A stretch of DNA of 64,000 nucleotides from an uncultured Gammaproteobacteria bacterium (GTDB lineage: Bacteria; Patescibacteriota; Microgenomatia; Levybacterales; UBA12049): positions 53,610 to 117,609 of the forward strand of contig CAYYSJ010000002.1 of assembly GCA_964474445.1 (NCBI GenBank). Reading direction: 5' to 3'. Positions 1 through 34,407 of the stretch are shown here, piece by piece. The position numbers were made by a program, and so were the translations under genes. The notes under the pieces are model-generated. The model searched no databases. It was not told the DNA's origin and saw only the letters and a list, made by a program, of their open reading frames with translations. Numbering within the stretch: position 1 is the stretch's first letter; each line of letters opens with the position of its first letter.

Positions 1-487
1 AAAACATTGTGATAAATGCGGTCAGTAATGGATCAACAACATAAAAATGAGCTGTTTGAATTGGTAATGTAGAAAGTCCATAGAGTGCACATCCTAACAG
101 CGCAATATTGGAAGAAAACATTCTTTTTCCCAGTAAGTAAATAAAAAGAATTGTTATGACTTCTGCAAAAATGGAGATATATCTTCCAACAAAACTCATG
201 CCACTATAGAGTCCAAGATCTGGAGACCATACTGAAGCAATGCTACTAATACTTTTTAAGAGATAAAGAGGGAAAGACCCATATGCAAAAAAATGTGGGT
301 TGAAAGAACTCATTGGAGAGAAAAATTCTGATAAAGAATGAGGGAGGCTAATTGGTTGAGAAAAGAGAATAATTGCTCTTTCATCAGGGTGAAGATGAAA
401 GTTTGCGTCCCAATTCATGCCATAAAACCTTATGCAAAAAGAAAAGAAAAGAATAAAGGCAAGTAGTATTCTGGCAATATATTTCAT
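1..487 (-). CDS. GT-C fold glycosyltransferase (PMT/ArnT-like, GT39/GT83-type). This is the N-terminal part; the C-terminus lies beyond the window edge. Not in the ORF table because it is truncated.
   Basis: The reverse-strand translation from ATG at 487 reads MKYIARILLAFILFFSFCIRFYGMNWDANFHLHPDERAII.., polytopic membrane. The N-terminus and the HPDE motif parallel the adjacent paralog at 484..2091. Confidence 0.55.
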   Translation of the reverse strand, partial: MKYIARILLAFILFFSFCIRFYGMNWDANFHLHPDERAIILFSQPISLPHSLSEFFSPMSSFNPHFFAYGSFPLYLLKSISSIASVWSPDLGLYSGMSFVGRYISIFAEVITILFIYLLGKRMFSSNIALLGCALYGLSTLPIQTAHFYVVDPLLTAFITMF

Positions 488-2091
488 AACTTTTTCTCAA
501 ATATCATAACAGTCGGTCTGTCAAAAACATTTGCAGTTTCTTCTACATGATAAAGAGGATTACCTATATATGTTAACGTACAAAAGATATCACAGGGAGT
601 TTCATAGATTTTTCTGTAGTTGGTGTTGTTGGATAGTAGATTTGTATAAAATGTTGCTCCAAGAGGGAATACGGTCTTATTTATTAATCTACTGTGAATA
701 AGTCGTTGGCTTGGAAGCACAAAAACATGTGCAATAGAAAAGTTCTGTTCAACTGTTGTAAATGCTTGTGGATTTTGATCCACCTCATACATGGGAAGTT
801 GAGTAATGGTAGGGAACATGTTATTAAATGGAAGAATTCCTAAATCATACGGTTCCGTTACAAGCATAGTAGTATTTGCAATATGATCCTGTGCCCATTG
901 TGCTGCGACAACTCGTGTATCAGGAGAAAAATAAACAGTTTTGATAAAAGAGTAGGTAAAGGCAAGTGAAACAAGAGCTATTGTTACATAGAGAAACCGT
1001 TTCACTTGAAGTGGTATGTATTCTAGCCACACAGAAATAATAATATACACAAATCCAAGTGTGGGGACCATATACCGTGCCCATTTTACAAATAAGAATG
1101 CTTGGGATACGAATATTATTAAGTAGTATATCGTAAGTAAAACCAATACAAGGTTTTTATGTTTTATTCCTTTTATCACAAGGAAAAGAAAAGCAGGAAT
1201 TAAAAGAACAGTTAGCAATGGATTCAATAAGAATGGGTATACCATTATAAACTGGAAAATAACAGGGATAGTGTTAAAAAAACTTCCTGTATAAAAAACA
1301 GGTAATGACCCGAGTGCTACTGAAGACTCATACTGCATACTCCCTAAGAAATCTTTTGTATCAAGTATTGCGAAAGGATTCGTTATAAGATAGATTGACC
1401 CAATGCAAAAAAAGTAAAGGAGAAAAGAAGAAAATACTTTAGGAATTACTATTGATTTTGTTTTAAAAAAGTAAAGAAAACTACAAAGAAGAGGAAAAAC
1501 GATGAGGGTAAGGTTTGAAATCTTTATTGATACTAAAATTCCCATAACTATCCCTGCAAAAAGTATATGTTTCACAGAGCTATTTCGTAGGAGAAGTAGT
1601 GAAGCATAAAACAGCCAAAGAGCAAAAAATGTTGTCCATATCTCAAATGTTCCAAAATGTGCATATTGAATAAACCCAGTACTAATGACTGCGAGAAAAG
1701 CACTAAATAACCCGATGCGTTTATTCCATAGTTTTGTGCCAATAAAAAAAAGGGAAAGTATTGTAAGAGATGATAACAATGCAGAGAAAAAGCGTAGCCA
1801 AAAAATCATAAAAGCAAAATCATTTTGTTTATTTGCTATATAGGAAAAAAGAGTACTTGCAAGGTAGATAAAATAGATAGGCAAAGATCCATATGCGAAA
1901 AAATGTGGATTCATCTGTGAAGGAAAAGAAAGTTGGCTTATCGCGTAGATGATATTTCTCTCATCAGGATGAAAGAAATATGGTGCCCCCCAGAGAAGAT
2001 TATAAAACCGGAGGAATGCTCCTATGAGAATAAGTATACCTATCAGAAACCAATAATTTTTGAGAGCAAAAAAACGATTTGAAAAATTCAT
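484..2091 (-). CDS. GT-C fold glycosyltransferase, dolichyl/undecaprenyl-phosphate-sugar dependent (PMT/ArnT-like, COG1807-type)
   Basis: 535 aa with more than 10 predicted TM helices and the N-terminal motif FYNLLWGAPYFFHPDERN typical of the PMT_2/ArnT family. A tandem paralog lies downstream. Confidence 0.7.
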   Translation of the reverse strand: MNFSNRFFALKNYWFLIGILILIGAFLRFYNLLWGAPYFFHPDERNIIYAISQLSFPSQMNPHFFAYGSLPIYFIYLASTLFSYIANKQNDFAFMIFWLRFFSALLSSLTILSLFFIGTKLWNKRIGLFSAFLAVISTGFIQYAHFGTFEIWTTFFALWLFYASLLLLRNSSVKHILFAGIVMGILVSIKISNLTLIVFPLLCSFLYFFKTKSIVIPKVFSSFLLYFFCIGSIYLITNPFAILDTKDFLGSMQYESSVALGSLPVFYTGSFFNTIPVIFQFIMVYPFLLNPLLTVLLIPAFLFLVIKGIKHKNLVLVLLTIYYLIIFVSQAFLFVKWARYMVPTLGFVYIIISVWLEYIPLQVKRFLYVTIALVSLAFTYSFIKTVYFSPDTRVVAAQWAQDHIANTTMLVTEPYDLGILPFNNMFPTITQLPMYEVDQNPQAFTTVEQNFSIAHVFVLPSQRLIHSRLINKTVFPLGATFYTNLLSNNTNYRKIYETPCDIFCTLTYIGNPLYHVEETANVFDRPTVMIFEKKL

Positions 2092-2147: not shown

Positions 2148-3416
2148 TTATCTTGTTATGCGGCTTGCAATTTTTTGTCCAAGTTCTATCGCATAATTTG
2201 TCCCTCTATCCCATGGGTATACCTGTTGGATGTTCGCAAGATAAATATTTGCAAGTGGCGTATCAAAAGGAGGCATAATCTTTGAGTAATTAACTGGAAT
2301 AATTGGTTGTGCAAAAGGGGTTTTAAAAATATCAACACCAACCAAATCTTTTTCGTACCCTGGATGAAGAACTTGGAGGATATGATCAAATTCTTTCAGA
2401 ATTTCTTTTTCCGACATTGCAAAGTATGGGTGATTATGGGGAAGATAATTCCCAAGATAGACAAGATGTTCATTATTGTAATGTCTTTTATTCATAAAAT
2501 TTGTATGTTCGACAACAGCCATAACAGGTGAAGCAGGGTCACATATACTCAACCAATATGTATTATCTGTTAAAAATTGTTTTTTAAGACGCAGAACAAC
2601 AGTCATAGCCCCAAGTCCTTCTAATTTTTGTAATTTCTCTTTATAGTCCTGTGGGAGAGAAGGACATAGTTTAAGAAATGGGAAAGAAGGAAGTGTCACA
2701 ATCACTTTATCAAATTCATATTTTTCTTTTCCAACAACAACATAGGGTCTATCTTTTCCAGGTTTTATTTCTGTAACTCCTGCACTGTAGAGAAATGTAC
2801 CACCTTTTTCTTTAATTGCTTTTTCCAACTGTTTAGCAAATAGTAAAAAGCCTCCTCGTGGGTAAGCAAGAGAGGGAGTTCTTTTAACAATACGTGCCCA
2901 AAACCAAGCCAGGGAAATCCTATCTGCAAAGCTACCAAATTTATTTGTTAATTGTGGTTCCCAAATTAACTTATATGCCTTTTCCCCCATTGCTTTAGGA
3001 AGATATTCTGAAGCTTTTACCCTCTCCATCGGTTTCCAGAAAGGGTTAATACGAAGCAATCCAAGTGTTTCAACCATTCTCAGCCTATCCCAAATAGGTA
3101 GTTTTGGAAAAGTCAGAAATGCTGAAGGAGAATCAAGTTGATATATTTTCCCGTCTATAAATACAGATGTTTTTGGACGTTTTATCGTAACAGGGAAATG
3201 AATTTCTTTAGCAAGCGATAGGACTATATTGTCGTTAGTAAACCAGTGGTGGTAGTAACTTTCAAGCGTCCATTCCCATTCTTTTTTTGTGTATCCTATG
3301 GCAAGTCCTCCTGGATTCTGGTCTTTCTCAAATACGGTAACAGAATGTCCCTCTTTACTGAGTGCATATGCTGCTGCGAGTCCTGTAAACCCTGCTCCAA
3401 TAATTCCTATTTTCAT
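2148..3416 (-). CDS. FAD-dependent oxidoreductase (amine-oxidase / UDP-galactopyranose-mutase-like Rossmann fold)
   Basis: N-terminal MKIGIIGAGFTGLAAAYAL..VFEKDQNPGG dinucleotide-binding motif. HHWFTND resembles the Glf HIFHTND motif. 422 aa. Confidence 0.6.
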   Translation of the reverse strand: MKIGIIGAGFTGLAAAYALSKEGHSVTVFEKDQNPGGLAIGYTKKEWEWTLESYYHHWFTNDNIVLSLAKEIHFPVTIKRPKTSVFIDGKIYQLDSPSAFLTFPKLPIWDRLRMVETLGLLRINPFWKPMERVKASEYLPKAMGEKAYKLIWEPQLTNKFGSFADRISLAWFWARIVKRTPSLAYPRGGFLLFAKQLEKAIKEKGGTFLYSAGVTEIKPGKDRPYVVVGKEKYEFDKVIVTLPSFPFLKLCPSLPQDYKEKLQKLEGLGAMTVVLRLKKQFLTDNTYWLSICDPASPVMAVVEHTNFMNKRHYNNEHLVYLGNYLPHNHPYFAMSEKEILKEFDHILQVLHPGYEKDLVGVDIFKTPFAQPIIPVNYSKIMPPFDTPLANIYLANIQQVYPWDRGTNYAIELGQKIASRITR

Positions 3417-4771
3417 AATGCTGTTCCACGGCTTATCAAGAATAATACAATACCAATAACCGTTGTGACAATACCGGTTGTTCCTGCAACGACAATGGTA
3501 TTACTTCCTGTTGGTGGAAGTGTAGGGCGAGGTGTGACTGATGGAGTGGTCTTGATAGCCAATGTTGGCTGTAAGGTTGGTGTTAGAGATGAGGGTTGGA
3601 TAGTTGGAGTGGGAGTTGGGATTGCTATGGTTATGGTTGGTTGTGCAGAGGGTGTTGCTGACTGGTCTACCTGGGATCCTGCTGCAAAAACAGTAAATGA
3701 TTGTTCTATGGTGTGTAAAATACCGTTTGCGTCTTTTGTCATAACAGTTAATGTATGGTTACCGGGAGACAATTGCTGTGTTGGGCGATATGTCCAATTA
3801 CCAGCAGTATCTGTTGTAACAGTGCCAGTAATGACTTGGGATGAATGTATCTCTATCGTTACCGTTTGGTTAGGAAGAGCTTTTCCACTAAATCGAGGTT
3901 GTGCATCGGTAAAAGCTTCGTTCTTTTTTGGAGTAATAATAACTGGGGTTGCTGCCAGTGTATTAGAGGATGAAAATGCCGGAAAACCGATAGATGCTGC
4001 TGCAGAATCTGATGCCAAAGGCTGCAATGATGTAGTGAAGTTGTATGTCTGAGAAAGTGTGATAAGAGGGATAGGGTTACTTCCCGATAGTAAAACAGTT
4101 GCTTGAGATGTTGACGTCCCATCGGTTGCTAAAATATGAAGAGGGGTTGCATTTTGGAATACAAAAGGAGTCTTCCCATCAGCTGTTTTGTACGTATTGA
4201 GTGGAATAGTATAGATCCCTGAGGCTTTGGTAAGTGTTGATAATAGTTCTCCTTTATCAGCAGTAACATAAACCAGGGCTTCTCCTGGGATGTTTCCATC
4301 TGCAGTAACCAATTTACCACTCACTGGGTTTTGAGAAGACGGATTGTTATTAAGTTTTGGTGCTGTTTGGAGAGTGAAATATGCGTCGTGATTAAGGTAT
4401 GTTGTTGTCCCCGATGTTATTGAAAAAATATACGCTGTTCCTGGTAGAAGATTTTTGATACTGATACTGTGTACTCTGTAAAGCTGTGGGTTTCCTGACT
4501 GTTGATCTCTCTCATCAAGAATTGTTTTGAGGGAGTTTTTATCTTGTCCCATAGAGATTGTTCCGATAACTTTTGCATCTGTTGTATAAGTAATTGTTGC
4601 ATTAGTATCAGAGATATTGGTTACTCGGACGTTTTGTGGGTTTTCTGAAGGTGCAGCGCCACTAAAAAAAATAACGCCTGATTGCACTAAAAATGTTGTA
4701 CCTAAAACAGTTGCGGTAATAAAAACTAATGCCAAGATTGTAGGAACTTTCCTATTCCAGATGTTTCTCAT
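3413..4771 (-). CDS. Secreted cell-surface protein with Fn3/Ig-like repeats, a Thr/Pro-rich linker and a C-terminal LPPTG sortase-type sorting signal
   Basis: Signal-peptide-like N-terminus. The C-terminus reads ..PTPTPTIQPSSLTPTLQPTLAIKTTPSVTPRPTLPPTGSNTIVVAGTTGIVTTVIGIVLFLISRGTAL (LPxTG + hydrophobic + R). The start overlaps the upstream gene stop by 4 nt. Confidence 0.6.
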   Translation of the reverse strand: MRNIWNRKVPTILALVFITATVLGTTFLVQSGVIFFSGAAPSENPQNVRVTNISDTNATITYTTDAKVIGTISMGQDKNSLKTILDERDQQSGNPQLYRVHSISIKNLLPGTAYIFSITSGTTTYLNHDAYFTLQTAPKLNNNPSSQNPVSGKLVTADGNIPGEALVYVTADKGELLSTLTKASGIYTIPLNTYKTADGKTPFVFQNATPLHILATDGTSTSQATVLLSGSNPIPLITLSQTYNFTTSLQPLASDSAAASIGFPAFSSSNTLAATPVIITPKKNEAFTDAQPRFSGKALPNQTVTIEIHSSQVITGTVTTDTAGNWTYRPTQQLSPGNHTLTVMTKDANGILHTIEQSFTVFAAGSQVDQSATPSAQPTITIAIPTPTPTIQPSSLTPTLQPTLAIKTTPSVTPRPTLPPTGSNTIVVAGTTGIVTTVIGIVLFLISRGTAL

Positions 4772-5088
4772 TGCAGTGAACCTCCTTGAGATGCTACCTT
4801 TGCAGACGCAGTAGCAACATAAAGCGGTGGAAGTGGTGTAGGCGTTGGACTTGGTGTCAGGGAAATCGTTGGTATAGGAGAGATAGTAAAGGCAGGATTG
4901 ACGACAAGACGTTTAGCCATCTTTGCTAGCGTTGCAGTATCAAAGCTTGCTTCAATCGGAGCAATAGCTTCACTTGTTGTTGTGCTGATTGTTGAGGTCT
5001 GTGAGTTGTGAACAATAGTAAATGCGATCCACGCAAAGACAACCACACAGGCTGATGCTAATAAAAATAATACATCTCGTTGTTTCAT
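4768..5088 (-). CDS. Small membrane-anchored protein (possible pilus-assembly accessory)
   Basis: One N-terminal TM helix (LFLLASACVVVFAWIAFTIV) and a Thr/Pro-rich tail. Translationally coupled between the PilO-like and LPPTG genes. Confidence 0.4.
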   Translation of the reverse strand: MKQRDVLFLLASACVVVFAWIAFTIVHNSQTSTISTTTSEAIAPIEASFDTATLAKMAKRLVVNPAFTISPIPTISLTPSPTPTPLPPLYVATASAKVASQGGSLQ

Positions 5089-5090
5089 AC

Positions 5091-5726
5091 TTATGCTTTA
5101 AAATATGTTTTCCCTCGTATTTGCATTCTGAATGTTGTGTCTATCTTACCCACATGGGTAATACTTATTGTTTCAAGGGTGATAAGTCTATTCAAGTTGG
5201 CAAGATTGGTGACATATTTGATCAAATTTGCATAATCTCCTTGTATTTCAATAGAAAATTCATACGTTGTATATTTTGCAGCAGCAGTTTTTTGCGTGAT
5301 ATCAACTGGAAGCGTCTGGACACGGGTTAGCTGTACATTAGAAGTTCCAGCAAGAGTATGAATTTGTCCCATGAATATGTCAATTGATAAATTGGTTGGA
5401 ATTGCATCATAAAGGGGTGGCAATGTGTTTTGTAGATTAGAATAAAGCTGCTGAAGCGTAGTGAGATTAGCTATTTTTTTTTGCAAGCTTTGATGAGTAA
5501 AATTGTCATCGTCTAACTGTTTTTGCAAATCAGCAATAGTACCTAATGTTGGGTTAATTGCAAAAAGACCAAAAAAGGCGATAGTGAGAAGGGTCAGAGT
5601 AAGTGTTGTAAACTGTTTAGCTCGTTTCTCTTTCATACCAGGAATAATTGAAAGGAATAATTTGCTTTCTTTTGGGTTACCAATGCCAAGATTTTTTATA
5701 CTGGGTAAAGATATTTTCAGATTCAT
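5091..5726 (-). CDS. PilO-like type IV pilus assembly protein
   Basis: A single TM helix (TLTLTLLTIAFFGLFAI) followed by a coiled-coil (IADLQKQLDDDN..LQQLYSNLQ) and an alpha/beta C-terminal domain. Adjacent to the PilN-like gene with ATGA overlap. Confidence 0.45.
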   Translation of the reverse strand: MNLKISLPSIKNLGIGNPKESKLFLSIIPGMKEKRAKQFTTLTLTLLTIAFFGLFAINPTLGTIADLQKQLDDDNFTHQSLQKKIANLTTLQQLYSNLQNTLPPLYDAIPTNLSIDIFMGQIHTLAGTSNVQLTRVQTLPVDITQKTAAAKYTTYEFSIEIQGDYANLIKYVTNLANLNRLITLETISITHVGKIDTTFRMQIRGKTYFKA

Positions 5727-6280
5727 AATAGTGTTTTTTGTTTTGTTGTTTTAAAAGTTGCTGTTAATCCAATAGTATACTCTCCTGTTGCTGATTTATT
5801 CTCTAGCTTATCAATACTTACTTTTGCAATTGAAGTATATGCTTTAAGTTTTTTGACAAATGTTGAAAGAGAAACAACAGAACCAACAGAGGCATCAATA
5901 TGAATATCCGTTGTTGAGTAAAAAATATTTTGTACAACCATATCTGATGGGAAAAAGCTGGTAAGATCGAGGAGCGTTTTTAGTTGTGTTGTCGTATCTG
6001 CATCAATAGTTTTTGCAAGTAAAAGCCTATCTTGCACATTGTGATATGTTGTCTCATTGTTTTTGAGTAAACCAACAATAACTTTTTCCTGATTAATCCG
6101 GTCATTAAGGTCAAGAATTTGTCTATCAAGACCAAATCGGAAAAGAAATGCTCCAAGGGCAATCGCCTCAGTTGCTATCACTAATACTCTTCCGATAGAA
6201 AGCGCCCACGAAAAAAAACGGTCAATAAAGTGTTCCCCTCTATTTTTTGCAAGATTAATTGTAGGAGAAGATTTTTCCAT
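5723..6280 (-). CDS. PilN-like fimbrial assembly protein
   Basis: N-terminal INLAKNRGEH.. resembles the PilN INLLP motif. One TM helix, then a coiled-coil/periplasmic domain. 185 aa. Confidence 0.45.
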   Translation of the reverse strand: MEKSSPTINLAKNRGEHFIDRFFSWALSIGRVLVIATEAIALGAFLFRFGLDRQILDLNDRINQEKVIVGLLKNNETTYHNVQDRLLLAKTIDADTTTQLKTLLDLTSFFPSDMVVQNIFYSTTDIHIDASVGSVVSLSTFVKKLKAYTSIAKVSIDKLENKSATGEYTIGLTATFKTTKQKTLL

Positions 6281-10459: not shown

Positions 10460-11587
10460 TTACAACCCTACTACCAGTGCTACTCCCAAGACCGTTAAAA
10501 CTGCTCCGCCAATCCCTACAAAAAGAATCGTTTGGCCAGGGCCTGTTGGAGGGAGATTTCCATTTACTCCGCTGCCGACAGTAATCGTTTGCGAACAAGA
10601 AGCAGGATTACTTACATTGCCCGAGGATGTTGTGAGTGTAGCGGTTGCTGTAAAAGTACCATTCCCGCTGTAGGTATGGGGCGTTTGAGCATTGACATTA
10701 CCAGTACCAATTCCAGAACCGCTTGCAACAGTGTCAACAAGCCCATCACCATAGTTAAGAGCAATTTTTGTAATGCTGTCGTTGGTTGCATTTCCTGTCG
10801 TGGTAAAGGTAACATTCAGTGGTGCATTTCCTTTGGTTACACTTGCCGCAAGACTACTGCAGGTAACAGAAATATTTGCACCATTTGTGGTGGACCCACC
10901 GCCAGTCCCTCCTGATCCACCTGAACTTCCCGACCCACCACCAGTCCCTCCTCCGCCACCCGATGTTCCTCCGCTACCAGGTGTTGGTGTTGCAGTTCCA
11001 CCGCCTGCAGATGCTGTCCCTATGGTTATTAATCCGTCTTGTCCTGCTTGGAAGACATTTTCTGCTGCTTGATCTCCTGCTGCTGTTGAGAGTGCTTGGT
11101 TTTGGCCATTAACAAAACTTATTTTCGTTGGGGTTCCTGGATCAGTGTTTGCTTTTGCAGTGAGTTTGATACTTGCTATCTTTGCACGCGATTTAATAAT
11201 GGCATTATCGTTCTGACCAACAGAAAGAGTAAAGCTTACCTGACAAAGACTGCTATCGTTGCAGGTAATGGTTGGTTTTTCAAGTACGGTATACGTTGTA
11301 CTGTCAATGGTAACTGGGTTATCGCTTGCTTTCGTTAACTTCGTTCCGTCATATGTAAAAGTAGCTTTGACGAAAGATACTGCATTGACTCCTTGTGGGT
11401 CAACAATAATGGGAATGTCCATACTGTCTCCAACATTGACAGGACTTGCAGGTACGGTAAAGGAAAATTTGGTTGAAGCTGCAGCACCACTTTTAGTTTG
11501 AGTTTGATTTTGGAGAACAAAAATAGCAAGGGGAAGGCCAACAAGGAGTGTTAATCCAAGTCCCAGTAATATAAGTTTCTTAATCAT
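10460..11587 (-). CDS. Secreted surface protein with a Gly/Ser/Thr-rich linker, a PKD-like domain and a C-terminal LPPTG sorting signal
   Basis: Probable start at MIKKLILLGLGLTLLVGL (signal peptide). It carries a GGGTATPTPGSGGTSGGGGGTGGGSGSSGG.. linker. A PKD-like segment reads NVTFTTTGNATNDS..YGDG..HTYSGNGTFTATATL. The C-terminus is NLPPTGPGQTILFVGIGGAVLTVLGVALVVGL. Confidence 0.55.
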   Translation of the reverse strand: MIKKLILLGLGLTLLVGLPLAIFVLQNQTQTKSGAAASTKFSFTVPASPVNVGDSMDIPIIVDPQGVNAVSFVKATFTYDGTKLTKASDNPVTIDSTTYTVLEKPTITCNDSSLCQVSFTLSVGQNDNAIIKSRAKIASIKLTAKANTDPGTPTKISFVNGQNQALSTAAGDQAAENVFQAGQDGLITIGTASAGGGTATPTPGSGGTSGGGGGTGGGSGSSGGSGGTGGGSTTNGANISVTCSSLAASVTKGNAPLNVTFTTTGNATNDSITKIALNYGDGLVDTVASGSGIGTGNVNAQTPHTYSGNGTFTATATLTTSSGNVSNPASCSQTITVGSGVNGNLPPTGPGQTILFVGIGGAVLTVLGVALVVGL

Positions 11588-11666: not shown

Positions 11667-11724
11667 TTGACAAAAAATATCAAAGTCTGGTATAAAATTA
11701 GCAGTCACTCACCCTGAGTGATTT
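11667..11724 (+). promoter_or_regulatory. groESL promoter (TTGACA-18-TATAAA) with an overlapping degenerate CIRCE-like HrcA operator (TTAGCAGTC-N9-GAGTGATTT)
   Basis: The inverted repeat at 11698..11724 lies 54 nt upstream of the groES ATG. It matches the CIRCE consensus TTAGCACTC-N9-GAGTGCTAA at 14/18 positions. Confidence 0.6.
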
Positions 11725-17246: not shown

Positions 17247-17332
17247 AGTTTGTCGTCTCTGATTTTTATCACTGACATAATTCATTCTAAATTTTATCTT
17301 TGCTATAATACATGCAGGTATATGAGATAATT

Positions 17333-18475
17333 ATGAAATTATATCCTTTTATTGCATTCCTACTCCTTTTTCTCCTTCTTCCATTTTCTGTTTTTGCTGC
17401 TGATCAGCAAACAGTTATTCTTTCTAAGAATGAAACAGTAAATCATGATTATTTTGCTACAGGAGGAAGTGTTGATATTGCAGGAACAGTCAATGGTGAT
17501 GTCTATGCTGGAGGAGGTAATGTGTTAATTGATGGGACAGTGAATGGTGATGTCCTTGCTGCAGGTGGACAAGTAACAGTAAGGGGAACTGTTCAGAATA
17601 TACGAGTAGCCGGAGGACAAATTGTTATTGACGGCAAGGTCAATGGAAATGTGACTGCTCTTGGAGGGAACATAACGACAACAGACACATCCACTATTAG
17701 CGGAGGCCTTGTTGGTGCAGGGGGACAATATAATTTACTTGGGCCTGTTGGTAAAACCGTCTCCATTGCATCTGGTCAAATAACTCTTGGAAGTATGATC
17801 GGAAGCGATGTCTGGCTGAATAGTCAAACTATTATCCTTACTCCCCAGGCAAAAGTAAATGGAAATGTTTCTTATGTCAGTCCACAGAATGCCCAGATCG
17901 CAAATGGTGCTATTATCAGTGGAAAAGTAAGTCACTCTTTTCCTCCTCAAAAACAGGAAAGACATGCGCGTGGTCTTATTGCAGCACTGGCAGGGCTTCG
18001 AATAGGTGTATCTATCGTGAGCTTTTTAGTAAGTCTTGTCTTTGGACTTTTATTGTTTCTCCTGATTCCTGTATATTCTGAAAGGATAACAGAACATATT
18101 TCACGCCATCCCTGGCAATCACTTCTTGTAGGAATTGTTGGTTGGGTACTCACACCTCTCGCCATTATTCTCCTTACAATAACACTTATTGGTATTCCAT
18201 TTGCAGTGGTTGTAGGCATTGCGATAGGTATCCTTTCCTATATTGGAAAAATCCTTGCGGCGGTTGTTATTGGACAATGGATAGTAGCACGGTTTGATAA
18301 ACGGAAAAATAATATTGTTGCACTCTTGGTTGGACTAATCGCAGTTGAGATAGTTGGACTTATTCCTGTCCTGGGTTGGTTATTTGCGTTTATCGTTGCA
18401 GCCATCGGATTTGGTGCAGTACTTTTTATGGAGAGAATATACTATACAGAATTTCGAGCGAAAAAACTCATTTAA
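17333..18475 (+). CDS. Signal-peptide protein with bactofilin-like beta-helical repeats and a C-terminal multi-TM domain
   Basis: MKLYPFIAFLLLFLLLPFSVFA-AD signal peptide, then repeated (G)TVNGDV.. / AGG.V.I.G.VNGNV motifs, then 4 or more TM helices. Start taken at the second ATG because the TGCTATAAT -10 box ends 2 nt before the first ATG. Confidence 0.5.
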   Translation: MKLYPFIAFLLLFLLLPFSVFAADQQTVILSKNETVNHDYFATGGSVDIAGTVNGDVYAGGGNVLIDGTVNGDVLAAGGQVTVRGTVQNIRVAGGQIVIDGKVNGNVTALGGNITTTDTSTISGGLVGAGGQYNLLGPVGKTVSIASGQITLGSMIGSDVWLNSQTIILTPQAKVNGNVSYVSPQNAQIANGAIISGKVSHSFPPQKQERHARGLIAALAGLRIGVSIVSFLVSLVFGLLLFLLIPVYSERITEHISRHPWQSLLVGIVGWVLTPLAIILLTITLIGIPFAVVVGIAIGILSYIGKILAAVVIGQWIVARFDKRKNNIVALLVGLIAVEIVGLIPVLGWLFAFIVAAIGFGAVLFMERIYYTEFRAKKLI

Positions 18476-27329: not shown

Positions 27330-27956
27330 CTATTTCTTTTCAAGAACATTTACAGTAAGTTCGTTATTGTGATAGTCAAATACAATATCAATTGGTTTAT
27401 CTTTGTTATTTTTAACATATAAATTTTGCAATGCATTGTTATTTGTTTGGCCAGGCATAAAGTAAATTGCGGTACCAAATTCTCTTGGAATTTCTGGGAT
27501 GACAGCGAAATCGTGATTAGTTGGAGAAACAACTTGTAACCCTGCTTTGAAAGCTGCTTCATGGATAAGAGAAGCTAAGTGACAGACTCCATCTGCAACC
27601 AGATAACCGTCTGATTTAAATCCTTCACTTGCCCCAAAATGAGCATTCGTTGTTTTTACAATTTTGCCCGCAAACTCTGGAAGAATGTCTTCATGGAATG
27701 CAAATACCTCACCAGGCTTAAGCGTAAATGAATAGGTGAATGGTTGCTCAACAATATTCCAGTTTGGATTATTTGTTATCGTCATACCACGCATGTATGC
27801 AAGCGTAAGGAGGATGTTATCTTTAAAAACATCATTCACAAACGTATTTGCATATCGTTTTTCAAGAGAAAACGCCTGGCTTCCCAACACAGATGGTGGT
27901 TGGGACATGCTTACTGCTGTAAACATACCGAGCGCAAAAAGTAAATTTAATAGCAT
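27330..27956 (-). CDS. VanW-like domain secreted protein
   Basis: Signal peptide. The segment DGVCHLASLIHEAAFKAGLQVV resembles the VanW core motif GGGVCQVSSTLYNAALLAGL. Weak. Confidence 0.4.
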   Translation of the reverse strand: MLLNLLFALGMFTAVSMSQPPSVLGSQAFSLEKRYANTFVNDVFKDNILLTLAYMRGMTITNNPNWNIVEQPFTYSFTLKPGEVFAFHEDILPEFAGKIVKTTNAHFGASEGFKSDGYLVADGVCHLASLIHEAAFKAGLQVVSPTNHDFAVIPEIPREFGTAIYFMPGQTNNNALQNLYVKNNKDKPIDIVFDYHNNELTVNVLEKK

Positions 27957-28145
27957 ATAGTATTCTTCAGTTCAATCCATATCTCTCTATAAGATTGTTT
28001 TAAGGCTGATTTTTATGGAGAGAATGAGGAAATTGAAGCTGAAGTGTTGGTGATTGTATCAAACTACAGGACAAAAGTCAAGCTTTAAGCATAGTGAGGG
28101 CTTATGCATTTTGGGAGGAAATAGGGACAAATATGGTAGGAAAAA

Positions 28146-28571
28146 CTATCTATCTTTTCGTCGAAATACGAATTTCAGTGCTGACCAATTTTCATTTACT
28201 GATACAACTTTTATGTCAACGAAATCTTGTGAGAGACCTATTCCTCGAACAATGTTTTCATTAACATTTGATCGTATATCACAATGTCCTTTTGGCCAAC
28301 TAATCCATATCATCCCCTGCACTTTTACTAGCTGTTTGAGATAAGGAAATAGTTCTTGGAGTCGTTCTTGAGATTGTATAAAAGCTTGAATAAGATCGTA
28401 CTCTCTTTGAGATGGAAGATCTTCATAATTGCAAGAGTCAATGGTCACTGTTTCAGGGAGATCGTAGAAGAGCTGTTGATATTCTTTCGGCTCATGAACA
28501 AGTAATACGTTCATGCCATGTTTTATTCCTAATTTTTGTACTAATGTACGGGAAGCATAACTTTTTTCCAT
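28146..28571 (-). CDS. Hypothetical protein (DUF3052-like)
   Basis: 141 aa soluble protein. The N-terminal LVQKLGIKHGMNVLLV resembles the DUF3052 family. Confidence 0.35.
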   Translation of the reverse strand: MEKSYASRTLVQKLGIKHGMNVLLVHEPKEYQQLFYDLPETVTIDSCNYEDLPSQREYDLIQAFIQSQERLQELFPYLKQLVKVQGMIWISWPKGHCDIRSNVNENIVRGIGLSQDFVDIKVVSVNENWSALKFVFRRKDR

Positions 28572-28592
28572 TGGATATAGTATACTTTAGGT

Positions 28593-28853
28593 ATGGAAAA
28601 GAAGCGATATTGGTTTCTTGCAAAAAAATTTGGACTAGGCTGGAGTCCAGCAACATGGGAGGGGTGGGTTATTACTCTTGTTTACATCTACGCACTTACC
28701 GTAGATATCATTGCACTCGTTCACAGCAGTGGCTATGCTTTTTTGAGATATTTGCTCAATGCATTGTTTCTTACCCTGTTTTATATTGCGGTCTGTTACG
28801 TCACAGGTGAAAAAATTACCTGGCGTTTTGGAAAGAAAAGAAAGTCGTTGTAA
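28593..28853 (+). CDS. Small membrane protein (hypothetical)
   Basis: Two TM helices, 86 aa. Confidence 0.3.
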   Translation: MEKKRYWFLAKKFGLGWSPATWEGWVITLVYIYALTVDIIALVHSSGYAFLRYLLNALFLTLFYIAVCYVTGEKITWRFGKKRKSL

Positions 28854-28920
28854 GAAAAATACAGCTAATTTTCTATCTTAGTTCTATCTTCTAGAAACGA
28901 CTTGACGAGAAAGCAATAAG

Positions 28921-29589
28921 TTGGTTATAGTAGTCTCCTGTATGTTTGTCTTTTCCACAATAGGAATTCCTGTCGTTTCGTTACTCCTTTCATTCCTTTA
29001 TCCTCAAGGCATTCAGGCCAAAAGTATACCACCTCTAGAACATCGTACTGTTCAAACACTCACTCGTCCAACACTTCCTGTCCTGCCAAGTCGTCCAGTT
29101 TTTAATGATAGATATACAACAACTTCATCAATCACACCCACAAAGGTAGCATCTATAACTAACCAGCCAACGACACAAACGCAATCAACCCCAACGCCAA
29201 CTGACTCAACTGTTCCAAGTGCCACTCCTGTCCAGACGGATGATAAAAAACACTTTATTATGAATGCAATTAACCAGTATCGTGCTTCCTATGGGTTACA
29301 ACCAGTCAGTATGAATGATACAACATGTAATTTTGCAAAAATCCGTGCAATAGAAATAACAAGTAACTTTAACCATGATGGGTTTAATCAGCGTATTCAA
29401 AACCATACCTTGCCATATCCAAGTTATTCACTCGTTACCGAAAATATTGCTGAGACGAGTAATTATCAGGAGGTTGTTACTATGTGGGCAAATTCTCCTG
29501 GTCATGCTGCAAATATGCGAGCCGACACTCCTTATGTCTGTGTTGAAAGCAATAATAATAACTACTACGCCTTTGAGGGATGGCGGTAA
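28921..29589 (+). CDS. CAP/SCP/PR1-like (YkwD-type) secreted protein
   Basis: Signal peptide and a Thr/Pro-rich linker. The CAP domain reads HFIMNAINQYRASYGLQPVSMNDTTCNFAKIRA...MWANSPGHAANM. Confidence 0.6.
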   Translation: MVIVVSCMFVFSTIGIPVVSLLLSFLYPQGIQAKSIPPLEHRTVQTLTRPTLPVLPSRPVFNDRYTTTSSITPTKVASITNQPTTQTQSTPTPTDSTVPSATPVQTDDKKHFIMNAINQYRASYGLQPVSMNDTTCNFAKIRAIEITSNFNHDGFNQRIQNHTLPYPSYSLVTENIAETSNYQEVVTMWANSPGHAANMRADTPYVCVESNNNNYYAFEGWR

Positions 29590-29687
29590 TAGAAGACGTT
29601 AACGAATCTTCATACAACATTGTACAAATGTGCTAATTTTTTACCTTAACGGGGCTCAATTTTTATGCTACAGTAATAGTACTTTGT

Positions 29688-30527
29688 ATGAAACGGTTGT
29701 TATTTCTTATTCTTCCAATACTACTTGCGATAGCAACATTTACCTCATTTTCTTTTATGCTTTCTCAAAGTACTTCAGGAAAAGGAGCACTGCAGGTAAC
29801 TTCAATTCCAGCAAGTAATGTCTATCTCAATGGAAAACTGGTAGGAAAGACACCTTTTTGCCAATGTGAAGGTAAAGACATGCTTGCTACTGGAGATTAT
29901 ACGTTAAAGTTAGTCCCTCTTGCGGGAGATAATCTTGATACCTACGAACAGAGGATCACTATTACAAAATCAATTCTTACAGTTGTTGATAGGACGTTTG
30001 GTGTAGGAGCTCTTTCAAGCGGATTTGTCATTAACCTTAGCCCTCTTTCAGACAATAATGCTGTACAATTGTTTATCTCCTCATTTCCTTCCGGTGCTCG
30101 TCTTAGTATTGATGGCAACGATTCAGGGCAAACACCATTGCTACTTAAAAATATCACATCATCCGACCACGATCTTGTTCTTGCAAAACCTGGATATAAA
30201 TCTAAGACTGTTCATGTTCAAACTCACCCTGGGTATCAGTTAAATGCAACTGTTTTTCTTGCTTTGCTCCCTCCTGATGCTAGTAGTGCAGCAATATTTG
30301 ATAACACAGGACTGACTCCCATACAAAAGCAAAAAGTGGTCATTTTAAATACTCCAACTGGATTTTTACGTGTGCGCTCTGACCCTTCTTTAGTAGGAAG
30401 CGAATCTGCACAAGTGAGACCTGGTGATATCTTTGAACTAGCCAGCGAACAGGATGGTTGGTATCAGATTAAACTTAAAGATGGAACGTTGGGGTGGGTT
30501 AGTGCTACCTATGCAAAGAAGCAGTAA
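29688..30527 (+). CDS. PEGA-domain protein with a C-terminal bacterial SH3 domain
   Basis: Signal/TM N-terminus. Two PEGA-like modules (VTSIPASNVYLNGKLVGKTP; ISSFPSGARLSIDGNDSGQTP). The C-terminal SH3b-like segment is FLRVRSDPSLVGSESAQVRPGDIFELASEQDGWYQIKLKDGTLGWV. Confidence 0.6.
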   Translation: MKRLLFLILPILLAIATFTSFSFMLSQSTSGKGALQVTSIPASNVYLNGKLVGKTPFCQCEGKDMLATGDYTLKLVPLAGDNLDTYEQRITITKSILTVVDRTFGVGALSSGFVINLSPLSDNNAVQLFISSFPSGARLSIDGNDSGQTPLLLKNITSSDHDLVLAKPGYKSKTVHVQTHPGYQLNATVFLALLPPDASSAAIFDNTGLTPIQKQKVVILNTPTGFLRVRSDPSLVGSESAQVRPGDIFELASEQDGWYQIKLKDGTLGWVSATYAKKQ

Positions 30528-30593: not shown

Positions 30594-31538
30594 TTATCCT
30601 CCGAGGAAATAAATGATTCCTATTACAAGCATTGCCCATGCAATGACTGTTATAAGAAGAGGAGTGTCTGATAACAGTACCTTCTCAGGGCTTTCTCCTT
30701 CATGTTTTTCGTAAATGTCCTGCAAATACCGCATGAGGCCATAGACAACAGGAATAATAGTTATCATAAGCCACTTTCTCTGAAAGGATGCTGGAAGAAA
30801 GTCAGGAAGTAGAATGTTGGCCCCTATTTTCAGTCCCCCAGGATTCTCAAAAAATGTAAAGAGTGTATAGAAAATATATGTGGATGTTGCAAAAATAGAT
30901 GCATAAACATTCAGTAAGGATTCAGAATAATGAGAAAGTGTTTTTCGGGTTGCCTCAATTTGGGTTCCTGGCATATGAGAAATAAGAGTAAGTTCAGACT
31001 TTCTTTTTCCAATAGCAAGAAAAAGTGAGAGTGCTACTGTTGTAAGAACAAGCCACACTGAAATATGGTATCCTGTTGCCAATTCTCCTGCGTAGACTCG
31101 AAGCATATATCCAGCTGCCAGAGCGAGAATATCCAACACAGTAATATTTTTCAAAAACATGGAATAGGATAACTGTAATGACAGATAGACAAGGACAAGA
31201 AAAAGAAATGTAGGGCTCAATGAGACAGCAACAATAAGAGATAATGCGATAAGAATAAGAGCAAAGATAATTGCGTAGGAAACTGAAAGATCACCATGGG
31301 CAAGTGGACGAAATCGTTTGAATGGGTGAATTCTATCTTTTTCAATATCAAAAATATCATTAACGATATAAATTGCAGAGGAGAGACCACAGAACACGAG
31401 AAACCCTAGAACACTTCTTGAAAAAAGATTTGGATCAAAGAGACGTCCTGAAAAAATGAGAGCAGCAAAGATAGCAAAGTTTTTAATCCATTGCTTTGGA
31501 CGTAAGAGTTTTAATGTTTTAAAAAGTTTTTTCTTCAT
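30594..31538 (-). CDS. UbiA-family polyprenyl-phosphate phosphoribosyltransferase-like protein (resembles decaprenyl-phosphate 5-phosphoribosyltransferase, Rv3806c-type)
   Basis: LRPKQWIKNFAIFAALI, YIVNDIFDIEKDRIHPFKRFRPLAHG (NDxxDxxxD + KRFRP), YMLRVYAG, IGKRKSEL. 8-9 TM helices. Start at the internal MKKKL. Confidence 0.75.
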   Translation of the reverse strand: MKKKLFKTLKLLRPKQWIKNFAIFAALIFSGRLFDPNLFSRSVLGFLVFCGLSSAIYIVNDIFDIEKDRIHPFKRFRPLAHGDLSVSYAIIFALILIALSLIVAVSLSPTFLFLVLVYLSLQLSYSMFLKNITVLDILALAAGYMLRVYAGELATGYHISVWLVLTTVALSLFLAIGKRKSELTLISHMPGTQIEATRKTLSHYSESLLNVYASIFATSTYIFYTLFTFFENPGGLKIGANILLPDFLPASFQRKWLMITIIPVVYGLMRYLQDIYEKHEGESPEKVLLSDTPLLITVIAWAMLVIGIIYFLGG

Positions 31539-32598
31539 CGCTTTGGAGTGTTTTATATAAAAATACCAATCCTCCACCAGCAATTGCTAAAAGCATCAAG
31601 ATTGCAAAAAGCTTTCCTGTGCTCGACAATGTCAAAGATACTGCGCCTAATATAGCAGAAACAATATAGTAAAACAAGGCAATACTCCTTTGGGAATACC
31701 CGAGGCGGAGTAGTTGGTGATGAAGATGCAAATTGTCGTGCCAAAAAGGAGATTTCCCTGAAGCAATACGTCTTGTGATAGTAAATAAACCATCTGCCAT
31801 TGGGACTCCCATGACAAGAATTGCCGTTGCCAATTTTGCTCCTGATAAGATAGCCACAACACTTAAAAGAAGATAAATAGATGTTGCACCGTAGCCAGGG
31901 AATATTTTTGCTGGATGAAAGTTATAGAGTAAAAATCCTAAGGCTGCTCCTGCAATAAGAAAAGAAAGTTTAGCGGCAAGAAGAGTGTGCGGATCTGTCC
32001 ATGAGAACCTTAAACTGAGTATTCCTATGACAATTCCTGATATTGCGACAACACCTGGCATTTGTCCATCAACTCCTTTACTCCAGTTCAACATGTTCAT
32101 TGCCCATACAACCCATAACAGTGCGAGCATGTCGGACAAAGGATAAATTGTGTGTGTCCCAAAAAAAGAAAATGTTATTTTGAGAAAATCTAAATGAATA
32201 ATGCCACCAAAGGGATTCGTGACAAATGGTATACCAATTCCTGCACTGACAACAATAAGTGCACAAAGAAAATTAATACCTAACCGGAGATATCGAGAAA
32301 TGTCATATTTATCATCCAGTGTTCCAATAACGAGTGCAAGCAAAGACGCAATAAAAATAGATATTGTTGTTCGGTCAATAGGTAAAGAAAAGAGAGCTCC
32401 TATAAAAATTCCTAAAAATAGAGCAACTCCTCCACCTCGTGGTATTGGTTTGGTATGTAACATTGCTGGATGTTTATGTGTTTTTGGATCGTCGACGTAG
32501 CCAAAACGTTTAATAATTGGGATAAGGAGTGGTGTTGCAATAGCAGTTGAAAGGAAAGCAATAGCAAGTGGAATAATAATGAAAAGAGGAAAATTCAT
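31519..32598 (-). CDS. Polyprenyl-phosphate N-acetylhexosamine-1-phosphate transferase (MraY/WecA/TagO family, GT4-type PNPT)
   Basis: IIKRFGYVDDPKTHKHPAMLHTKPIPRGGGVALFLG and the DD/DK motifs. 10-11 TM helices. 359 aa. Confidence 0.8.
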   Translation of the reverse strand: MNFPLFIIIPLAIAFLSTAIATPLLIPIIKRFGYVDDPKTHKHPAMLHTKPIPRGGGVALFLGIFIGALFSLPIDRTTISIFIASLLALVIGTLDDKYDISRYLRLGINFLCALIVVSAGIGIPFVTNPFGGIIHLDFLKITFSFFGTHTIYPLSDMLALLWVVWAMNMLNWSKGVDGQMPGVVAISGIVIGILSLRFSWTDPHTLLAAKLSFLIAGAALGFLLYNFHPAKIFPGYGATSIYLLLSVVAILSGAKLATAILVMGVPMADGLFTITRRIASGKSPFWHDNLHLHHQLLRLGYSQRSIALFYYIVSAILGAVSLTLSSTGKLFAILMLLAIAGGGLVFLYKTLQSDEEKTF

Positions 32599-32966
32599 AG
32601 AATCACCTGAAAAATTCTCATTACAAAAATTAACACAAAGAAGGCAAGCGCTGCATTTGTGACAAAAACAAATCGGGCGAGAAGAGGATTTTTTTTGAGA
32701 AACTGAGTACCTAAAAAGAGATTGCTTAGTATGAGAATAAGTGAAAGCAATATTGGGACAAAAATTTCATATGTTCTTCCAAGTCTTTGATATCCCCATG
32801 GCTCGTGGTTATAGAGAGGCAAAAAAGGAGGTAGTTGTCGATATAAGAGAGCAACTCCTGCAACGACAAAAAGAAGAAGACTAAAGCTTATGATAAAGCT
32901 CCACCATGCAACATTGTCTGATTGTAATTGTTTAATAAGTCCTTTCATAGATAATAGCATTATCAA
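32595..32966 (-). CDS. Small membrane protein (3 TM helices)
   Basis: Hydrophobic 123 aa. Translationally coupled between the GT-C and WecA-like genes. Confidence 0.35.
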   Translation of the reverse strand: MIMLLSMKGLIKQLQSDNVAWWSFIISFSLLLFVVAGVALLYRQLPPFLPLYNHEPWGYQRLGRTYEIFVPILLSLILILSNLFLGTQFLKKNPLLARFVFVTNAALAFFVLIFVMRIFQVIL

Positions 32967-34407
32967 ATGTTATTTTCATTTTGTAATGTTTTAATTGATA
33001 TGGCATATTGCCTGCATTTTGAAGAATAATAACATACTTTGGCATTGTTTGTATAAGTGCAGTTTGTGTTTCCTTTATGGTTGTTCCATTTGCTGTAATA
33101 TGGTATGCAACAGTGTATTTCCCCGGAGGAAGGCTATTCGTTAATTTATAAATCTGAGCGCTATTCCCCCAAATGAAAATTTGCTCGTTATGTTTACGAA
33201 CAGTTTGTATATATGCTGCAACATCATAATCTTGGGGGGTCTGTTGATCAAAAAAAGTTTGATATGCCTCAGTTGTTTTTTTACCAGCAGCATAGGATAG
33301 GTAATTTGCGTAATACAAAAATGTTTTATTGTAGTACCAAAAGTTTTTGGCGATAAAAAAGACGATCACAATAAGAAGAATACTATGGAGCACTTTTTGC
33401 TTTTGTTGCTGTATAAGAAGTCCAATGAATAAAGAAAAACTTGCAATGAAAACTAAAAGATAATGTGTATATGGTCGTTGTGAGAAAAGCGCACTAAAAA
33501 GAGAAAAGGAAAGCCAAATATAAACAAAAAGTTGAGTAAGGGAAAAGACTTGTTTTTTCCATAAAAGTATAAGACATAGACCTCCCAAAATAAAAATTTT
33601 TCCAAGTAACAATCCTTGAGGGATAATAAATTGGTTGCCGTAATTTACATACCCCACATTACTAAAGAAGGCTGATTGGAGAAATATTTTAAGCGCTCCA
33701 TGTGTTACAAAAAAGACAATTGTTAGAATGAGTGGAACAAAAAATGCCGAGAGAAAAACTGCGCTATAGGTAAGAGTTTGTTTGATCAATTTGGTAAAGG
33801 AATGGAGTTGAAAATAACAAACAAAAAGGAAAAACCAAAACGCTGCTATATCAAAAATAGCTACAACTTTTATGAGAAATGATATTCCTAGGGCCATTCC
33901 TGCCAGACCTACAAGGATGTAATCTTTATTTACTGTTTGTTTCTTTTGTGCAACATAAAGTATCAGTAGAGCGCTTATTAACGAAGGTAAAACCATAAAA
34001 TTTTCTGCATTTGCAATATTCCCTTCAAGAAACGGAAGTCCTAGGAGAAGTGCAAACAGGAATGTACTAGCATAGTAAGCAGTTTTTTTAGCGAAGAGTT
34101 TTTTTGCAATGAAGAAAAAGAGAAGAACAGCAAGAAGACCAACAATACAAGAAAAAATCTTAACTGGCATTTGATCTCCCTGAAACAGTGAATAGATAAG
34201 ATACAAGAAAGGTGGTTTGTTATCCCAAATGTCCCTATAGAGAAATCTCCCGTGCCGTAGTCCAAGTCCGACCACTTCATAAATTCCTTCATCACCATAC
34301 CAATACGGTTCAAAAAAAGAAGGAAGTCTTAGGAAGAAAAAAAGAATACTTGTTGATAGGACAAACCAAAAGTCGAGGGATTGCTGAAGACGAGTAAGAA
34401 GTTTCAT
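32932..34407 (-). CDS. GT-C fold glycosyltransferase (PMT_2/ArnT-like)
   Basis: 491 aa polytopic protein. The N-terminal motif FFEPYWYGDEGIYEVVGLGLRHG (DE motif) precedes about 12 TM helices. Confidence 0.6.
   Translation of the reverse strand: MKLLTRLQQSLDFWFVLSTSILFFFLRLPSFFEPYWYGDEGIYEVVGLGLRHGRFLYRDIWDNKPPFLYLIYSLFQGDQMPVKIFSCIVGLLAVLLFFFIAKKLFAKKTAYYASTFLFALLLGLPFLEGNIANAENFMVLPSLISALLILYVAQKKQTVNKDYILVGLAGMALGISFLIKVVAIFDIAAFWFFLFVCYFQLHSFTKLIKQTLTYSAVFLSAFFVPLILTIVFFVTHGALKIFLQSAFFSNVGYVNYGNQFIIPQGLLLGKIFILGGLCLILLWKKQVFSLTQLFVYIWLSFSLFSALFSQRPYTHYLLVFIASFSLFIGLLIQQQKQKVLHSILLIVIVFFIAKNFWYYNKTFLYYANYLSYAAGKKTTEAYQTFFDQQTPQDYDVAAYIQTVRKHNEQIFIWGNSAQIYKLTNSLPPGKYTVAYHITANGTTIKETQTALIQTMPKYVIILQNAGNMPYQLKHYKMKITFDNAIIYERTY

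Follow-up and report, generated by a model that had tools for sequence, protein, structure and literature searches.

The question posed by this locus is whether a bacterial surface protein carries a genuine sortase sorting signal when the DNA around it encodes no sortase. The 64,000-nucleotide stretch of contig CAYYSJ010000002.1 (assembly GCA_964474445.1) analysed here, which we call the window, encodes on its minus strand a 452-residue surface protein, hereafter FN3BIG, that ends ..TLPPTGSNTIVVAGTTGIVTTVIGIVLFLISRGTAL. We propose, with moderate confidence, that FN3BIG is a sortase substrate; this is the most likely reading because the three-part arrangement at its C-terminus is genuine, departs from chance and is subject to selection. 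The gene and the parts of its product are as follows, pLDDT being the per-residue confidence of the AlphaFold2 model.

3413..4771, minus strand: gene for FN3BIG, 452 residues (open reading frame and translation, Pfam, AlphaFold2, 385 homologues)
4655..4771, minus strand: N-terminal leader, residues 1-39 (28-sequence alignment; AlphaFold2 helix at residues 3-30)
4367..4639, minus strand: domain 1, fibronectin type III-like beta-sandwich, residues 45-135 (Pfam fn3/Pur_ac_phosph_N; AlphaFold2 strands with pLDDT >90)
4037..4324, minus strand: domain 2, beta-sandwich, residues 150-245 (AlphaFold2 strands, pLDDT 85-93)
3689..3943, minus strand: domain 3, bacterial Ig-like Big_13, residues 277-361 (Pfam Big_13 in 28 of 28 family members; AlphaFold2)
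3521..3676, minus strand: Pro/Thr/Ser-rich linker, residues 366-417 (disordered, with pLDDT <50 for residues 371-425; alignment columns 420-520 gappy)
3506..3520, minus strand: LPPTG pentapeptide, residues 418-422 (translation; family motif statistics)
3416..3499, minus strand: C-terminal hydrophobic helix, residues 425-446, and tail SRGTAL (hydrophobic span 3434-3499; translation; AlphaFold2 helix at residues 424-449)

The sequence-only reading of this DNA had described the end of FN3BIG as LPPTG, a hydrophobic span and a basic residue, and this description holds. The motif is followed by a hydrophobic segment of 22 uncharged residues, and two to three polar residues separate it from the helix, a spacing that sortase signals share. 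Among 437 stop-to-stop open reading frames (ORFs) of at least 50 residues in all six frames, LP.TG occurs only twice, in FN3BIG and in the product of 10460..11587, and in both proteins LPPTG lies 26-30 residues from the C-terminus, ahead of a hydrophobic helix. Chance does not readily produce such a pair: when the residues of the 69 predicted window proteins were shuffled in 2000 rounds, the expectation was 0.36 LPxTG motifs at any position and 0.033 within the C-terminal zone where a sorting signal belongs, and two or more in that zone arose in 1 of the 2000 shuffles. The second carrier is

10460..11587, minus strand: second LPPTG protein, 375 residues (translation from the ATG at 11587; Pfam; synteny)

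Translation bears out the earlier statement that this protein, which ends NLPPTGPGQTILFVGIGGAVLTVLGVALVVGL, has LPPTG and no basic tail. Its motif occupies residues 345-349 (nt 10541-10555) and is followed by about 22 uncharged residues; extending the frame to a TTG start at 11683 is probably wrong, since it is at an MIKK-like position that homologues begin. The protein consists of a leader resembling that of FN3BIG (ending AAPS/AAAS), a cohesin-like domain, a Gly/Ser or Pro/Thr linker, a PKD domain, LPPTG and a helix, and its family, which we call cohesin-PKD, matches Pfam PKD in 25 of 26 members and Cohesin in seven of 26. A profile scan of species-representative genomes with the FN3BIG family yielded 49 syntenic loci, in 34 of which the cohesin-PKD gene lies between groES and lepA. 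Thus a protein unrelated to FN3BIG carries a matching signal in FN3BIG genomes.

Selection on the motif is apparent from its setting. The linker of FN3BIG is hypervariable in both length and sequence, and within it LPPTG[SN] is almost invariant across the closest homologue clusters, some 55 in number (LPATG and LPSTG are rare), while Gly422 is invariant in the 28 aligned FN3BIG sequences and in about 90 representatives. About 15 of 120 FN3BIG homologues also have ‘TKGG’ just upstream of the sorting motif. When FN3BIG is sampled by 90 full-length representatives (50% identity), the Gly is preceded by Thr in 37 (41%), Pro in 32 (36%), Ala in six (7%) and Ser in four (4%), the residue after it is [NS], and the canonical [LIV]PxTG is present in only a minority.

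The drift between Thr and Pro appears to be concerted. The residue before the Gly agrees between FN3BIG and the cohesin-PKD protein in 18 of 29 genomes, as compared with 10.0 in shuffles (p=0.0006, computed without phylogenetic correction), and this within-genome co-variation argues for one common factor that recognises both proteins. It also shows that LPPTG is but one form of a wider signal, [LI]-[PA]-x-[T/P]-G-[N/S/P]. In a neighbour-joining tree of the FN3BIG ectodomain the Thr and Pro states are interspersed, and several independent switches must therefore have occurred. We regard this concerted drift of a signal in two proteins as mildly new, a lead rather than a finding.

Such drift could also mean that the signal is specific to the lineage, its core being P-x-[T/P]-G-[N/S] and LPPTG one state of it, and that it is read by an altered, Pro-tolerant sortase or by an enzyme other than a sortase. 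We consider this improbable. It would accommodate both the mixture of residues before an invariant Gly followed by [NS] and the repeated, independent switching of the two proteins together, and it is consistent with the sortases of the Candidate Phyla Radiation (CPR) forming a clade outside classes A-F. On the other side, no gene resembling an exosortase, archaeosortase or rhombosortase was seen in the window or the loci (no dedicated models were used), and in several genomes (L003, L025 and L033) Pro precedes the Gly in one of the proteins and Thr in the other, so that a single enzyme would have to accept both. The PGF-CTERM/archaeosortase and PEP-CTERM/exosortase systems are similar in that several unrelated proteins per genome have a short Pro/Gly motif directly ahead of a C-terminal helix, and many FN3BIG family members do have ..PG[NS]. 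They differ in that here two to three polar residues separate motif and helix, in that the window motif is a canonical LPxTG and in that no archaeosortase or exosortase gene was seen (again without dedicated models). An exosortase-type signal was rejected.

If FN3BIG is a sortase substrate, where is the sortase? The earlier statement that none is encoded in these 64 kb was borne out by three approaches that agree: a motif search found no TLxTC-type motif in a plausible ORF of the window, Pfam scans of about 55 window ORFs gave no sortase, and a hidden Markov model (HMM) built from 120 CPR sortases, run against all six-frame window ORFs of at least 60 residues, reached a best E of only 0.78. 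This absence is expected and uninformative, because CPR sortases stand alone, away from LPxTG substrates. A profile search with synthetic CPR-style sortase sequences recovered 3658 CPR sortases (PF04203 matches), which have a conserved His motif, GHSS..W, and a conserved Cys motif, TL[MI]TC.P.GT. In the neighbourhoods of such genes (L056-L139; 80 metagenomic loci plus two genome look-ups, both of which fell in non-Levybacteria assemblies), the sortase is a single stand-alone gene, typically beside a PEGA-domain membrane protein, murA and mreB and not beside substrates, and LPxTG-type ORFs are almost absent around it (three weak ones in 789 kb). The 80 metagenomic loci show no Levybacteria-level similarity to the window.

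These neighbourhoods have a character of their own. A membrane-anchored PEGA-domain protein adjoins the sortase in 35 of the 80 loci, and among loci of at least 8 kb murA is nearby in 12 of 39 and mreB in 17 of 39; the sortase-adjacent PEGA proteins have no C-terminal sorting signal. Sortase, PEGA, murA and mreB thus form a conserved cell-wall and cell-shape neighbourhood of which we know no description.

The sequence-only reading had judged covalent anchoring to be notable in a lineage with so reduced a gene content. This part of it fails: a sortase family is present in more than half of CPR genomes and is near-ubiquitous in Microgenomates (Meheust et al. 2019, PMC6744442), the group to which the window belongs (see below), and so covalent wall anchoring here is not notable. 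The family comprises 1903 proteins of ~231 residues with one transmembrane helix, in 1020 CPR genomes (Meheust et al. 2019, PMC6744442), and one closed Microgenomates genome has been reported to encode a sortase. In a sortase-bearing lineage LPxTG proteins are expected and add little in themselves. There is also a wall to which such proteins could be anchored: murJ and yceG are present in the window, and a LytR-CpsA-Psr (LCP) gene lies downstream in relatives.

A number of results weigh against sortase anchoring. The basic tail of FN3BIG is a single Arg (SRGTAL), many homologues end ..TSGATL with no basic residue at all, and the 375-residue protein has none after its helix. Comparison with the LPXTG-anchor model TIGR01167, which the sequence-only reading had suggested as a check on both proteins, gave no match to either at E<=1, and neither did PF00746 (Gram_pos_anchor); the only match was a weak one to EF0750_LPXTG (E 0.005; 17 bits, where the cut-off is 47). 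In favour of the signal, PF00746 is reached at E<0.01 by some family members, three of 28 for FN3BIG and one of 26 for cohesin-PKD. Beyond the window's clade LPXTG is often not kept across FN3BIG orthologues, the Gly alone being invariant, and Thr has given way to Pro in 36% of representatives; to our knowledge, no characterised sortase accepts Pro at the Thr position. The two proteins moreover differ in some genomes, e.g. IPPPG as opposed to VPPTG in L003. As for the enzyme, the sortase HMM finds none either in the window or across related loci that cover 10 kb to each side of the gene in 49 genomes and total 1.03 Mb, no recovered CPR sortase shares a contig with an FN3BIG family member, and none of those recovered is demonstrably Levybacterial, so that the lineage step rests on the literature. 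Nor can specificity be read from sortase class, because not one of the class A-F cut-offs is reached by CPR sortases: three of them (P0242, P0245 and P0319) pass TIGR01076 and score 70-83 bits against class A-F cut-offs of 140-166. The ‘class D sortase’ names that some CPR sortases bear in public records are unsupported for the same reason.

Many of these points would also suit a permanent bitopic or C-terminal membrane anchor, in which [LI]Px[TP]G[NS] serves as a juxtamembrane helix-capping or packing motif and nothing is cleaved. An invariant Gly beside a position that is often Pro, Ala or Ser rather than Thr, a minimal or missing basic tail, anchor models that miss the window proteins and the lack of a sortase near any of the 49 loci all fit this explanation, which we think unlikely though it deserves to be taken seriously. 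A mere packing motif sits less easily with an identical pentapeptide on two unrelated proteins whose variants co-vary within genomes, with the strict conservation of LPPTG inside a hypervariable linker, or with the constant spacing of two to three polar residues before the helix in the manner of sortase signals; the lineage, furthermore, is reported to carry sortases.

What would a sortase attach to the wall? FN3BIG runs from a leader or transmembrane helix through three beta-sandwich domains and the Pro/Thr-rich linker to LPPTG, a transmembrane helix and the tail SRGTAL. The Fn3-like label given to it by the sequence-only reading proved apt: Pfam places fn3 (2.4e-4; a weak fn3/Pur_ac_phosph_N region at residues 44-122) and Big_13 (1.4e-11; residues 284-361), and in the family Big_13 is matched by 28 of 28 members and fn3 by 27 of 28 (best 7e-8). 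The AlphaFold2 model, built from the 28-sequence alignment, has a mean pLDDT of 76.5, with the three beta-sandwich domains at about 90. No Pfam family was placed on domain 2, a CarboxypepD_reg match falling at residues 295-351, in domain 3. The latter has a conserved motif, GNWxYRP..L.PG.H, of which W326, R329, P330, G337 and H339 are invariant in the alignment. Foldseek searches against the PDB with the model return only generic FN3/Ig tandems (contactins, SiiE, ice adhesin), suggesting that the ectodomain is a stalk, with no recognisable enzyme or pilin. The Pro/Thr linker is a candidate O-glycosylation stalk.

At the other end of the protein, the leader has a conserved W-N-K-R-I-P-T n-region, then a 19-residue hydrophobic helix and Ala39 in ..SGA|AP..; A39 is invariant in the alignment, and P10 and P41 are nearly so. 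The invariant Ala39 may mark a signal-peptidase site. The n-region is basic yet conserved and the c-region is long, and a further point to be set against wall anchoring is that the helix may instead be an uncleaved anchor. Both LPPTG proteins (4655..4771 and 11470..11587, minus strand) have such a long leader, consisting of K[KR]..LLG[LF], an h-region, YLV/Q, about eight residues and AAPS, and the other secreted proteins of the window have ordinary signal peptides, unlike these two. By analogy with YSIRK leaders, to which it is similar in idea, the long leader may be a dedicated type.

The closest parallel is with Gram-positive LPXTG proteins such as Staphylococcus aureus protein A, the substrate of SrtA. 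Shared features are a putative export leader, a beta-sandwich ectodomain, a Pro/Thr-rich wall-spanning linker, and LPPTG placed some 30 residues before the end of the protein, with a hydrophobic helix behind it and, in FN3BIG only, a basic residue. The differences are a tail with one Arg or none, anchor HMMs that miss the window proteins, a motif that a third of the FN3BIG family has as xxxPG, and a presumed enzyme from a CPR-specific sortase clade that lies below all class A-F cut-offs.

Tandem Ig-like domains also bring sortase-assembled pili to mind. Pilins of the SpaA/RrgB type combine a signal peptide, tandem Ig-like domains and LPxTG, and FN3BIG, at 452 residues, superficially resembles them; it could then be a subunit of a Gram-positive-type pilus, polymerised by a pilus-specific sortase. 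This explanation is largely refuted, and we hold it to be highly improbable: FN3BIG has no YPKN pilin motif or E-box, the 49 loci contain no adjacent class C sortase or second pilin gene, Foldseek gives FN3/Ig tandems and no CnaA/CnaB pilins, and the neighbouring genes belong to type IV pili.

There are 385 homologues of FN3BIG at E<=1e-3, one of them 100% identical, and every named homologue belongs to the Patescibacteria group, Microgenomates or Levybacteria. The lineage-named records among the 49 syntenic loci, one of which is the closed chromosome CP066685.1, are nearly all Levybacteria/Levyibacteriota or ‘Patescibacteria group’, a few having other titles; NCBI taxonomy places Levyibacteriota in the Microgenomates group of Patescibacteria. 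The window thus derives from a Levybacteria genome (Microgenomates, Patescibacteria/CPR), and both LPPTG proteins are envelope proteins specific to this lineage. The window itself has a G+C content of ~38% and a housekeeping set as expected for a small genome (groESL, dnaK/J/grpE, lepA, infB, nusA, pnp, rnj, ftsK and murJ). Many records of metagenome-assembled genomes that contain the syntenic block (L007, L009, L015, L016, L021, L024, L027, L028 and others) are titled ‘uncultured Gammaproteobacteria bacterium’ (TPA_asm), and further records with this Levybacteria-specific block are titled Eisenbacteria, Paceibacterota or Saccharimonadales; these titles are probably mislabels.

The genes around FN3BIG suggest where such a stalk might act. 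Its immediate neighbours, from upstream to downstream, are

5723..6280, minus strand: pilN (orthologues match PF05137 PilN; overlaps pilO by 4 nt)
5091..5726, minus strand: pilO, type IV pilus alignment protein (Pfam PilO, PF04350, 2.6e-14)
4768..5088, minus strand: 106-residue membrane-anchored protein of no known family (ORF; its stop overlaps the FN3BIG start by 4 nt; present in 48 loci)
2148..3416, minus strand: FAD-dependent oxidoreductase of the amine-oxidase family (Pfam Amino_oxidase, 3.5e-25; found at this place in most of the 49 loci)
2..2091, minus strand: two GT-C (PMT_2) membrane glycosyltransferases, directly downstream (2..487 and 484..2091; Pfam PMT_2; conserved position)

These genes are tightly packed, with overlaps of 4 nt between pilN and pilO, between the 106-residue gene and FN3BIG, and between FN3BIG and the oxidoreductase, and with pilO and the 106-residue gene 2 nt apart. 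FN3BIG is thus the fourth cistron of a translationally coupled operon, after pilN, pilO and the 106-residue gene, and the oxidoreductase can be placed in the same operon because its start overlaps the FN3BIG stop. The order S20-pilN-pilO-small gene-FN3BIG-oxidase-PMT_2 is kept in nearly all of the 49 loci; in relatives a DUF2298 protein and the LCP gene follow within 10 kb downstream, the latter at 8-9 kb. Scans for promoters and terminators came out no higher than shuffles would give. The identification of pilN comes from its orthologues, 14 of 17 of which match PF05137 (best 2.1e-7), the window copy having no Pfam match; the N-terminal I-N-L motif is invariant in N9 and L10. The 106-residue protein begins with a transmembrane helix, which is followed by a conserved STI..I.PI.P.FD block and a tail rich in Pro and Thr; its extreme C-terminus, GG[ST]L[QK], is also conserved.

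Its position as fourth cistron of a pilN-pilO-x-y operon suggests that FN3BIG is probably a wall-side partner of type IV pilus alignment proteins and not a free-standing adhesin. FN3BIG itself has no Pfam or NCBIfam matches to type IV pilus families, none to PilP, PilQ or a pilin, and a type IV pilin reading was rejected, there being no prepilin G|FTLxE motif; in the 64-kb window there is no pilM, pilus ATPase or pilin gene. In the PilM-PilN-PilO-PilP(-PilQ) arrangement of diderms the comparison is one of position: two envelope proteins follow pilN-pilO here, in the places of pilP and pilQ, and the last of them, FN3BIG, is a beta-sandwich protein that would contact peptidoglycan. The two arrangements differ in that neither protein is homologous to PilP or secretins, and operon structure is what suggests the link to the pilus machine. 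CPR genomes lack PilQ (Meheust et al. 2019, PMC6744442). The constant association of FN3BIG with pilN-pilO in a lineage without PilP/PilQ is mildly new, and we offer it as a lead and not as a finding. A bolder proposal, speculative and quite improbable in our estimation, is that pilN-pilO-x-FN3BIG constitutes a monoderm replacement for PilP/PilQ, a sortase-stapled stalk that couples the PilN/PilO platform to the wall, and that the signals have co-evolved with a CPR sortase shifting repeatedly from ..TG to ..PG, an undescribed recognition class.

The downstream end of the locus may point to glycosylation. Envelope polymers or the Pro/Thr linker could be what the two PMT_2 proteins glycosylate. 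A comparable case is the Actinomyces oris protein GspA, reportedly an LPXTG glycoprotein to which an LCP enzyme adds the glycan before the housekeeping sortase attaches it to the wall. The two cases are alike in combining an LPxTG protein with membrane glycosyltransferases in a conserved envelope locus (with the LytR-CpsA-Psr gene of relatives 8-9 kb downstream), and the Pro/Thr-rich stalk of FN3BIG would be a plausible glycan acceptor, a suggestion drawn purely by inference; they differ in that there is no sequence relationship and in that the adjacent transferases here are of the GT-C/PMT_2 type.

Elsewhere in the window there are further genes of envelope character. PMT_2/GT-C transferases number three in all (2..487, 484..2091 and, also on the minus strand, 32932..34407), and near the last of these, on the same strand, lie a GT4 phospho-sugar transferase (31519..32598), a 329-residue multi-pass membrane ORF that looks UbiA-prenyltransferase-like by eye only (30594..31583) and a 497-residue protein of no family (34453..35946). 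Together with the DUF2298 and LCP genes of relatives, this density of envelope glycosylation genes suggests that a wall polymer is made by way of polyprenyl-phosphate sugars. Secreted proteins associated with the wall are encoded in a row at 27330..30527 and include VanW-like (27330..27956), CAP/SCP (28921..29589) and PEGA+SH3 (29688..30527) proteins, the last of which is not similar to the PEGA proteins beside CPR sortases. A 387-residue protein (17312..18475, plus strand) combines a signal peptide and a segment resembling bactofilin (PF04519, 7e-7) with a C-terminal hydrophobic helix and, after it, a basic tail, ..ERIYYTEFRAKKLI, and has no LPxTG.

Taken as a sortase substrate, FN3BIG would be exported through Sec by its N-terminal leader and would project its three-domain beta-sandwich stalk on the flexible Pro/Thr linker, the C-terminal helix at first holding it in the membrane. 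In the window's clade LPPTG would then be cut between Thr and Gly by a CPR-type housekeeping sortase, the only one of the genome and encoded outside the window, and the carboxyl group of the Thr would be joined to peptidoglycan (lipid II) to give wall-anchored FN3BIG; the cohesin-PKD protein would be handled likewise. The wall-bound stalk, its linker probably glycosylated, would act with PilN/PilO.

If this is true, the two families would be specific and conserved candidates for the substrates of CPR sortases, enzymes that are otherwise uncharacterised. They also lend themselves to experiment, the LPPTGSN peptide and a Levybacteria sortase being a testable pair and the ..TG/..PG variants a natural series for probing sortase specificity. 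For the biology of these organisms, one of the substrates would be tied to the genes of the type IV pilus, the presumed mediators of their episymbiotic way of life.

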